Assembly (NCBI GenBank): GCA_030650275.1
Contig: JAUSEK010000023.1
Coordinates: 199,729 to 263,728 of the forward strand
Reading direction: 5' to 3'
From: Candidatus Omnitrophota bacterium
Lineage (GTDB): Bacteria; Omnitrophota; Gorgyraeia; Zapsychrales; Fredricksoniimonadaceae
DNA: 64,000 nt
Under the pieces are notes generated by a model. It saw only the letters and a list, made by a program, of their open reading frames with translations. It ran no database searches and was not told where the DNA came from. The position numbers and the translations under genes were made by a program. Shown one piece after another: positions 59,602 to 60,968 of the stretch; positions within the stretch are counted from its first letter, which is position 1; each line of letters begins with the position of its first letter.

Positions 59602-60482
59602 ACAGTTAAAAGAACTTCCCTGGCGCTTTGGCGGATGACATCGGTGGTGATGGAGAAAGTATTACCGACGAATCCCGCCAAAAGGGCGCGGTCGCAGAGG
59701 ATATTGATCAGCCGCGGCGTGCCGCCGGAATAACTGTAGATCATTTCCACAGCATCGGGGGTGAATTCCAGTTTTGGATCGGCCTGGGCGGTTTTGAGGC
59801 GATGGTTGATGTAACCGGCGATCTCGTCTTTGTCCAAAGGTAAAATGTGGTAGCGCACCGCCACCCGTTGGTTCAACTGCCTTAAGCCCTGGTCCTGCAG
59901 TTTTTTTAAGAGTTCCGGCTGTCCCACCAGAATGATCTGCAGGAGTTTTTCTTTTTCGGTTTCCAGGTTTGACAAAAGGCGTATCTGTTCCAGTTGGCGG
60001 ACGTTGAGGTTTTGGCATTCGTCGATGATGACCGCGACATTATTGCCCCTGGACGATTGGTCGATGAGAAAACGCGTGATGGCCCAGACGAAATCAAGTT
60101 TATTGCCTTTGGTGCAATCAATGCCAAGGTCCCGGGCGATCAACTGCAATAATTGCAGGTCGCTGAAGCTGGGATTCAGGATGAGCGCGGTCTTGATCTT
60201 ATCGTTGAGGCGGTTGAGCAGGATACGGCACAGGGTGGTCTTGCCGGTACCGATCTCTCCGGTGACGACGATGATGCCTTTGCGCGACTCAATGCCGTAT
60301 TGCAGGTGATCAAAGGCCTCCTGGTGGCGGGAACTGGCGAAGAAGAAAAACGGGTCGGAGGTGATGTTAAAGGGGTTTTCTTTGAGGGAGTAGAACTGTT
60401 TGTACATTAAGGGCATTATAGCACCGATTGGCAATTCGTTAAAATATCGTATATACTTTTTGCACCATGTATTTAAATCCAA
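59598..60482 (-). CDS. ExeA/GspA-like AAA ATPase
   Basis: 'FYSLKENPF', Walker A 'GEIGTGKTTL', Walker B 'VAVIIDECQ'. Confidence 0.7.
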   Translation of the reverse strand: MDLNTWCKKYIRYFNELPIGAIMPLMYKQFYSLKENPFNITSDPFFFFASSRHQEAFDHLQYGIESRKGIIVVTGEIGTGKTTLCRILLNRLNDKIKTALILNPSFSDLQLLQLIARDLGIDCTKGNKLDFVWAITRFLIDQSSRGNNVAVIIDECQNLNVRQLEQIRLLSNLETEKEKLLQIILVGQPELLKKLQDQGLRQLNQRVAVRYHILPLDKDEIAGYINHRLKTAQADPKLEFTPDAVEMIYSYSGGTPRLINILCDRALLAGFVGNTFSITTDVIRQSAREVLLTV

Positions 60483-60968
60483 GAATAAGACGCTTTTTGG
60501 CTTTGGGCCTGCTTTTTGCCTTTTTAGGCAATGGCATAGCTTTGCCCGTCTATGCCCAGGAACTGGTTTTGCCTGCTCCCGGTACCCGCATTGCCCTAAG
60601 CCCTGCCTTTAACCCCCCAATCCTCAAAGGCCTCAAGGTCCATCCCGACAACCCATTTCGTTTTGATTTTATCTTTGATCAAGGTGATTCCCTCCCCCTT
60701 GTGGGGAGGGCCAGGGAGGGGGATAATCAAGAACAACTCAAAGCAGAAGCCAACAAACTCATCAAATACTTCCTCGCCTCCCTCGCTGCGCTCGGGATAA
60801 ATCCGGCCGAACAACTTACGTCGCTGACGCTTCCGTAAGTTGTGGTTTCATTTACAGAACGCCCCGGGCTTTGTGCCGGTCATTATCAACATCCAGCCCA
60901 TGACGGACCTGAGGGAGTTTCTTGGGCTAAATAAAGAAGACGGCCCTCCTCAATCTTCACATGGTTAA
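60467..60968 (+). pseudogene. collapsed remnant of the giant-protein paralog family (paralog 3): N-terminal ~120 aa, stop, then out-of-frame C-terminal tail
   Basis: 60467-60838 encodes signal peptide + 'LPAPGTRIALSPAFNPPILKGLKVHPDNPFRFDF...KLIKYFLASL'. 60858-60968 in another frame encodes 'GFVPVIINIQPMTDLREFLGLNKEDGPPQ', matching the C-terminal tails of paralogs 1 and 2. Confidence 0.55.

Follow-up and report, generated by a model that had tools for sequence, protein, structure and literature searches.

A probable internally deleted remnant of a modular secreted-protein gene, with a hairpin element at its junction, in newly acquired DNA of an Omnitrophota bacterium

We analysed a 64,000-nucleotide stretch of DNA from a Candidatus Omnitrophota bacterium (assembly GCA_030650275.1, contig JAUSEK010000023.1, positions 199,729 to 263,728 of the forward strand), hereafter the window. 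It carries three members of a protein family which, judged by its sequences, is specific to Omnitrophota and consists of secreted modular proteins with a signal peptide, a conserved N-module of about 400 amino acids (aa), a variable centre and a C-domain of about 60 aa. Two of them, paralogs 1 and 2, are complete, and the third, locus 3, retains only the two ends of such a gene. We consider it likely that locus 3 is a recent, internally deleted remnant, joined through or interrupted by a small hairpin element (element E), and that it lies in newly acquired DNA together with an ORF6N gene.

Locus 3 retains both ends of a family gene

The upstream piece is an open reading frame (ORF) of 123 aa, ORF-N, in which a Sec-type signal peptide (60467-60559, identified by eye) is followed by about 75 residues of the family N-module. 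It matches paralog 1 over residues 3-98 (47% identity, E = 1e-23 in BLASTP) and also paralog 2, its best protein match is NCBI Q7K71_07240, and a profile of the first part of the N-module, the N1 sub-module, covers it at full length (125 bits, positions 1-74 of 74). The signal peptide and the N1 block (LPAPG...NPPILKG.KVHPDNPF.FDFI.D.GD...KLIKYFLASL) are those of the family N-terminus. Homology to the family stops at 60784, the end of KYFLASL (60764-60784), and is followed by 18 unrelated codons and a TAA stop codon (60836-60838), in agreement with the coordinates and sequences of the original prediction. The break falls at about residue 106 of the roughly 400-residue N-module and not at a boundary between module and cargo, and the remaining ~300 aa of the module (TIPEKDLWVNLSPYEK ... 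PRKYFSGG) are missing. A profile census finds exactly three N-modules in the window.

The downstream piece lies in the +1 frame relative to ORF-N, where GFVPVIINIQPMTDLREFLGLNKEDGPPQ is encoded at 60867-60953 within a 42-codon ORF opened by TTG (60840-60968). It had been proposed that this piece matches the C-termini of paralogs 1 and 2, with a chance match as the alternative. Pairwise BLASTP gives weak matches to the two paralogs (E 0.002-0.003 in a tiny search space), both located at the very ends of the proteins. Against a profile built from 78 family C-termini, the window tail scores 62.7 bits (E = 3.6e-18 among 2671 six-frame pieces of the window; profile positions 54-88 of 91); paralog 2 (55.7 bits) and paralog 1 (47.3 bits) give the only further matches in the window. 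The 78 members were picked by the pattern PVIINIQP, which favours the window tail, but the profile positions outside this selection (LQNAPGF and MTDLRxFLGL) match it too, and with this score they allow a chance match to be rejected. The complete C-domain in the frame of the N-module (GGIDLT...IKFHLDPAML.QLQNAPGF.PVIINIQP...FLGL) was not found at locus 3. Scanning species-representative genomes for back-translated PVIINIQP yielded about 95 tails that are genuine and, with few exceptions, from Omnitrophota; they terminate ORFs of mostly 800-2300 aa and have the consensus GGIDLT...IKFHLDPAML.QLQNAPGFVPVIINIQPMTDLR.FLGL; the same scan of viral contigs gave two chance matches only.

The extent of the loss can be read from a full-length counterpart, L130, located in a metagenome scan for the distinctive start of locus 3 (MYLNPRIRRFLALGL). 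The L130 gene (reverse complement 295-4383, 1362 aa) shares with ORF-N the first 12 residues (MYLNPRIRRFLA), a nearly identical signal peptide and the sequence from -40 to -1, and it encodes a complete N-module, a phosphoglycerate kinase (PGK) domain (Pfam, E = 2.8e-36), a weak PPDK_N match and a complete C-domain. The nucleotide (nt) identity between ORF-N and the start of this gene is 82%. Window positions 60427-60691 and 60755-60780 align to 255-522 and 559-584 of the L130 reverse complement at 82-88% identity, and 60855-60927 aligns to 4300-4371 at 84%. Relative to L130, about 3.7 kb (codons ~98-1335), between KYFLASL and LQNAPGF, is missing from the window, which bears out the original prediction that the whole centre is gone.

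Junction element

The 74 bp between the two pieces, element E, belong to neither the N-module nor the C-domain. They match a sequence in the spacer between an ATPase gene and recO in the relative L124 (6875-6947, opposite orientation), with a local alignment score of 57 against 14.8 ± 2.0 (maximum 24) for shuffled sequences. Element E contains a perfect 10-bp inverted repeat (60811-60820/60834-60843), and this stem persists in the L124 copy, with two changes that look compensatory in the aligned sequences. Rfam gave no RNA family in 60300-61800, element E included. About 1 Mb of Omnitrophota DNA yielded only three copies. None occurs in paralogs 1 and 2 or in L130, and within the window element E is unique except for a half copy at recO, which is identical to the L124 element at 19 of 19 positions. 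The element is present in L124 and missing from the closest relative, L125. The L124 copy has a possible flanking GAAATT duplication, as read from its sequence, and the window copy has none. Element E reads as a small hairpin element of a low-copy family.

At its joins element E shows microhomology of TCCCTC with the N-module and TT with the tail, and it both supplies the ORF-N stop codon and shifts the frame by +1. It may have been taken up as filler while the deletion formed, or have inserted into the join later. Aligned at the DNA level, the three window loci share only short stretches of at most ~80% identity, indicating that the paralogs are old and have not exchanged sequence with one another recently. 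The suggestion of a recombination footprint holds only as an illegitimate deletion with foreign filler, and not as a repeat shared with paralog 1 or 2.

Block missing from close relatives

Locus 3 and the ORF6N gene make up a block of 1257 bp between a GspA-like ATPase gene and recO. For comparison we used fetched contigs that carry close relatives of this ATPase (L124, L125 and L126). The block is missing in all three, with recO lying 40-138 bp from the ATPase gene. L124 positions 6988 and 6987 align to window positions 60423 and 61681, so that the window has exactly 1257 bp extra. The window and L125 are sisters (nt identity of 94.8% in the ATPase gene and 96.7% in recO; synonymous divergence, dS, 0.13-0.18), so that parsimony favours a single gain in the lineage of the window. 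On its left side the block begins within 3-5 nt of the start of a promoter-plus-gene unit found in L001, L130 and L131, in three different upstream contexts. The coordinates of all features are collected in Table 1.

As a separate observation, the spacer between the ATPase gene and recO is a recombination boundary when the window (59598-62478) is compared with L124: dS is 0.55 in the ATPase gene and 0.25 in recO, with nt identities of 84.6% and 94.1%. The same spacer holds element E and received the 1257-bp block.

Table 1. Features of locus 3, its surroundings and the complete paralogs in the window
Feature	Coordinates	Strand	Description
Lineage-specific block	60424-61680		1257 bp; remnant and ORF6N gene, between GspA-like ATPase gene and recO
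Promoter-like site TTGGCA-18-TATACT	60428-60457	+	from consensus scan; ~10 nt 5' of the ATG; putative function
ORF-N	60467-60838	+	signal peptide and N1 sub-module, then 18 element-encoded codons and stop
Palindromic insert encoding SLPLVGRAREGD	60689-60724	+	in frame, 36 bp; insertion hot spot after FDxGD
Element E	60779-60852	+	74 bp, two hairpins; replaces the deleted centre; carries the ORF-N TAA stop
C-tail remnant LQNAPGFVPVIINIQPMTDLREFLGLNKEDGPPQSSHG*	from ~60852 to 60968	+	+1 frame relative to ORF-N; profile match and identity to L130
ORF6N gene	61117-61656	+	intact, KilA-N-type, anti-repressor-like; Pfam, PHROG, PADLOC
Half copy of element E	61719-61741	+	opposite orientation, just 5' of recO, at the position of the full L124 copy
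Paralog 1	20658-25322	+	1554 aa; N-module, enolase-like, histidine-phosphatase/phosphoglycerate mutase, C-domain
Paralog 2	30840-33440	+	866 aa; N-module, receiver domain, C-domain

Expression signals and coding history

Upstream of ORF-N, a promoter-like stretch (60428-60466) is conserved with L130, L131 and L001, and the homology to L001 and L130 starts at 60427-60429, that is, at the promoter-like site. Sites of this kind are no commoner in the consensus scan than in shuffled sequence, and the promoter/terminator scan found no terminator-like site at the locus. With the upstream regions of L130, L131 and L001 compared, there is no Shine-Dalgarno-like sequence between this stretch and the ORF-N ATG, which suggests that transcripts of this family member are leaderless or nearly so. 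A secreted N-terminal fragment of 123 aa is plausibly the most that the retained predicted promoter could yield. The only possible start of the C-tail ORF is the TTG at 60840, which has no Shine-Dalgarno-like sequence, and translation of the C-tail is improbable.

In the profile comparison both pieces match the consensus fully, and omega is 0.1-0.2 for each against its nearest homologs (dS at least 0.67), so any decay is recent. Both evolved as coding sequence for nearly all of their history, which fits a recent inactivation without proving it.

The palindromic insert within ORF-N has copies of 90-97% identity in unrelated genomes (L064, L066 and L004), is missing at the matching position in alignments with L130 and L001, and folds computationally into a hairpin. 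Different palindromes, perfect or near-perfect and all in frame, occur at the same spot after FDF..D.G(D/H) in the three window genes, encoding GTAGAGACGAGGCATGCCTCGTCTCTAC in paralog 1 (20880-20907), GTAGAGACGCAGCATGCTGCGTCTCTAC in paralog 2 (31056-31083) and SLPLVGRAREGD in locus 3, and the spot looks like an insertion hot spot for elements resembling repetitive extragenic palindromic (REP) sequences or Rickettsia palindromic elements (RPE). Additional palindromes occur in paralog 2 (31491-31544 and 31767-31793).

Other collapsed members of the family

A census by regular expression missed diverged N-modules, and our counts rest on the profile census. In full-length genes the N1 sub-module and the C-domain are separated by 2.1-6.2 kb and almost always share one frame; in the window the gap is 64 nt and the frame +1. 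In L003, KYFLASL(T) is joined to DPAQLAELQNAPGF, one nucleotide short of in-frame (frame +2). In-frame mini-genes that consist of N1 and the C-domain are found in L128 (P0249, 169 aa) and in L129/L007 (P0293, 133 aa), the latter with palindrome-derived filler at the join. P0241 (176 aa), available as a protein sequence only, has KYFLASLT, a short linker and a full C-domain and is probably another in-frame case, and P0243 (227 aa) is best taken for an ordinary family member of very small size.

In every known mini the N-module is interrupted between residues ~72 and ~118, and because the junctions differ among the collapsed loci, they indicate independent events. Internal collapse is thus recurrent in the family, although in an unbiased genome sample only one of about 95 tails is collapsed. 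An apparently identical SLTLP junction in the window and L003, a candidate sign of common ancestry or of a recoding signal, was rejected because the window stretch is the loop of element E.

The mini-proteins come from a protein homolog search in which the longest listed matches had some 1.75 times the length of the query (216 aa with a query of 123 aa and 237 aa with one of 135 aa), which apparently puts full-length relatives out of its range. Because the search is blind to out-of-frame minis, the proportion of in-frame ones carries no meaning. The gapped DNA pattern YFLASL-gap-APGFxPVIINIQ found nothing in the Joint Genome Institute (JGI) metagenome collection, which also lacks the contig of L003. 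An AlphaFold2 model of P0241 from a 60-row alignment has a mean predicted local distance difference test score (pLDDT) of 68, with a moderately confident N1 (hairpin and long helix), a C-domain at 40-65 and no confident packing of N1 against the C-domain.

Neighbouring genes

The ORF6N gene matches Pfam ORF6N (E = 1.7e-33, 115.2 bits against a cut-off of 27.8), a PHROG anti-repressor family (E = 6e-31) and, over its full length, the PADLOC candidate PDC-S05 (E = 4.7e-60). Its ATG is preceded by the ribosome-binding site AAAGGGGA, whereas the C-tail ORF has none, and the ORF6N gene is probably the functional gene of the block. The Bro-N gene that follows paralog 1 (25426-26256) matches PADLOC PDC-S13 over its full length (E = 6.9e-124). 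Both genes, members of phage-defence-candidate families, stand immediately 3' of family C-tails, as had been noticed in the original prediction, and ORF6N/Bro-N homologs also lie directly 3' of family genes in L064 and L118. The pairing is real but occasional: KilA-N-type genes are 2 of the 64 sampled downstream neighbours of family genes, with a few further cases nearby, and on this count we rejected a systematic link between the two.

The setting of these genes is of a mobile type, given the PADLOC matches of the ORF6N and Bro-N genes and the integrase and tRNA-Pro genes beside the L130 gene. The L130 gene is directly followed on its 3' side by a tyrosine integrase gene (E = 5.4e-36) and tRNA-Pro(CGG), at 4478-5769 of the reverse complement; the integrase stop codon and the tRNA 5' end are 3 nt apart, an unusual arrangement for integration into the 3' end of a tRNA gene. 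In L129, positions 5223-10952 hold a small ORF and a gene with a weak PIN match, the in-frame mini-gene, a helix-turn-helix gene, four tandem ORF6N paralogs and a lipoprotein-like ORF, and this region looks like a variable accessory island. Paired KilA-N/ORF6N proteins have been described in an Omnitrophota integrative module, in a phylum with an unusually active mobilome (preprint 10.64898/2026.05.20.726742).

The protein family

Across 32 complete genes, N-modules that are 71-83% identical flank centres without detectable similarity, and constant ends with a variable centre are a true property of the family. No model in Pfam or NCBIfam covers either conserved module. Long Omnitrophota proteins with signal peptides and with metabolic and receiver domains have been described (preprint 10.64898/2026.06.07.730766), and the N and C modules of the family are undescribed in both that preprint and 10.64898/2026.05.20.726742. 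No DNA-level site common to the three window paralogs was found.

Several of the cargos are lower-glycolysis enzymes placed behind a signal peptide, namely the enolase-like and phosphoglycerate mutase domains of paralog 1 and the PGK and weak PPDK_N of L130, and stand-alone PGK genes follow family genes in L039 and L049 (translations judged by eye). Among the short homologs (P0002-P0120 and P0241-P0318), a very large number of public Omnitrophota contigs and called genes break off or change frame within KLIKYFLASLTIPEKDLWVNLSPYEK. This segment is conserved and multi-copy and evidently breaks short-read assemblies, so that the family is under-represented and fragmented in metagenome-assembled genomes.

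Discussion

These results can be joined into a likely history of locus 3. The comparisons show the homologies, both endpoints of the deletion, the foreign origin of the junction sequence and the lack of the block in the relatives; the sequence of events, the loss of function and the mode of insertion are inferred. The original gene would have resembled the 1362-aa, PGK-bearing gene of L130, and it would have lost about 3.7 kb, starting immediately behind KYFLASL and ending immediately ahead of LQNAPGF, by illegitimate recombination. Element E would have been captured as filler or inserted at the join, with the stop codon and the +1 frame as the result, and the gene would thereby presumably have lost its function. 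The remnant and the intact ORF6N gene would have been gained as the 1257-bp block after the split from the nearest sampled relative, the remnant being a passenger in accessory, mobile-type DNA.

Several observations weigh against this reading. L130 is only 82-84% identical to locus 3 and is thus a homologous counterpart and not a direct ancestor. At the edges of the block we looked for a target-site duplication, terminal inverted repeats and an att-like core and found none. The junction is known from one assembly only (one member on one contig in the homolog search). Neither piece carries the degenerative changes expected of a long-dead pseudogene. Finally, in-frame minis of N1 and the C-domain exist elsewhere, so that the cargo-less form may be functional and the window copy could have been disrupted or recoded very recently.

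This last point is the basis of an alternative that we regard as unlikely, in which locus 3 is a functional mini-gene without cargo, N1 and the C-tail forming a minimal targeting or anchoring unit that is expressed either separately, as two peptides, or as a single protein through ribosomal bypass or frameshifting at the hairpin. The in-frame proteins P0241, P0249 and P0293, the narrow range of breakpoints and the consensus-like state of both window pieces are in its favour, and a bypass has a possible take-off codon in CCG (60833-60835), which is followed by the TAA within the 10-bp stem and matched by an in-frame CCG (60864-60866) in the frame of the C-tail, as in gene 60 of phage T4. However, we estimate that chance alone would place a matching proline codon within about 20 codons in roughly one case out of three, and the sequence at the junction is a foreign element that is intergenic in a relative. 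L003 would need the opposite frame change (the window is +1, L003 +2) across an unrelated junction sequence, which implies that the two share no recoding signal. The missing ribosome-binding site of the C-tail ORF, the model of P0241 and the blindness of the protein search to out-of-frame minis count against a functional mini-gene as well. More broadly, N1 and the C-domain could be a minimal functional chassis that exports or displays arbitrary cargo, glycolytic enzymes included, with cargo gained, lost and exchanged by recombination between the constant ends, cargo-less genes as functional intermediates and the window locus either freshly interrupted by a mobile hairpin element or still expressed across it through ribosomal bypass, but we hold this to be improbable.

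The original prediction also offered locus 3 as an empty acceptor site, which would make it an exchange site of a cassette system in which cargo is swapped between constant ends by site-specific recombination. The intuition of exchange suits the family as a whole, with its similar N-modules around unrelated centres, and the hairpin element lies exactly at the join while an integrase gene adjoins the L130 counterpart. For locus 3 itself it fails, since the break lies inside the N-module and has removed some 300 of its conserved residues, the frames disagree with a stop codon between them, and we found no recombinase, integrase or tRNA near the locus. Moreover, paralogs 1 and 2 and L130 have neither a copy of the element nor a shared DNA site at their module borders, and the other collapsed loci have different junctions that lack such an element, so that an acceptor site is extremely improbable. 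An assembly artefact, in which a longer true gene was lost when the assembler jumped across a repeated element or merged reads from different paralogs, might be suspected, as the conserved modules are multi-copy, many public contigs end in them and a single assembly carries the junction. We judge it very unlikely: N1 and the C-tail share no sequence of k-mer length, unique sequence of 74 bp flanks the junction on either side, collapsed genes occur in at least three other unrelated assemblies (L003, L128 and L129), and even with two copies of the element the N-module would still be interrupted at residue 106. The block could also be ancestral at the site between the ATPase gene and recO and lost from the relatives, as its edges bear no signature of insertion and the spacer is the recombination boundary described above. 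This would require two or three independent and equally precise losses, the window and L125 being sisters, and it leaves a left edge that falls within 3-5 nt of the start of a conserved gene unit in three other genomic contexts; we therefore consider an ancestral block unlikely. The internally deleted remnant in newly acquired DNA remains our preferred explanation, its original gene, deletion and filler being as set out above.

Compared with known systems, locus 3 is similar to internal-deletion pseudogenes with filler, as it keeps both ends without the centre, has a foreign junction with microhomology, a frame shift and a premature stop codon, and lies in a strain-specific block beside a mobile-type gene. 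It differs in its still perfectly consensus-like pieces and in the repeated, at times in-frame, collapse of family members, a pattern not usual for random decay. Ogata and colleagues reportedly found, in 2000, Rickettsia palindromic elements inserted in protein-coding genes. Small mobile sequences within genes are described for enterobacteria (PMC2759123). Similar to such palindromic, REP or MITE-like (miniature inverted-repeat transposable element) sequences, the insert in ORF-N and the palindromes of paralogs 1 and 2 are short hairpins that are read in frame, and the presence of element E differs between close relatives; unlike them, element E breaks the reading frame, is known in three copies and has no duplication at the window copy.

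The family resembles the polymorphic secreted proteins of Rhs and contact-dependent inhibition (CDI) type systems, which have constant ends and orphan fragments, in its conserved termini, unrelated variable regions, several paralogs per genome and truncated copies. In contrast to them, its variable part is central and not C-terminal, the cargo is metabolic or regulatory (enolase-like, phosphoglycerate mutase, PGK, receiver) with no toxins, there are no immunity genes, and the remnant is without any variable part. Neither the nearby recombinase nor the repeated border site of integron attC/attI or shufflon-like systems was found at locus 3. Programmed translational bypassing occurs in phage T4 gene 60 and at the byp elements of Magnusiomyces mitochondria, and locus 3 is similar in having a hairpin in a coding region, a stop codon right after a potential take-off codon and a matching downstream codon in the correct frame. 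These features differ from programmed bypassing or frameshifting in that they are not conserved among homologous loci, the frame change of L003 is opposite and the codon match is readily explained by chance; we know of no nascent-peptide signal at locus 3.

Taken alone, locus 3 is an ordinary product of genome flux, a gene remnant in accessory DNA. One use of it is as the marker of a recent 1257-bp gain whose limits are precisely defined by comparison with close relatives. Another is that it points to an uncharacterised, phylum-restricted family with conserved ends, unrelated centres and repeated collapse to N1 and the C-domain, and this family merits a separate look. If the mini forms are functional, they would define the parts of the protein that are needed for targeting, a testable question in a phylum without a cultured genetic system.

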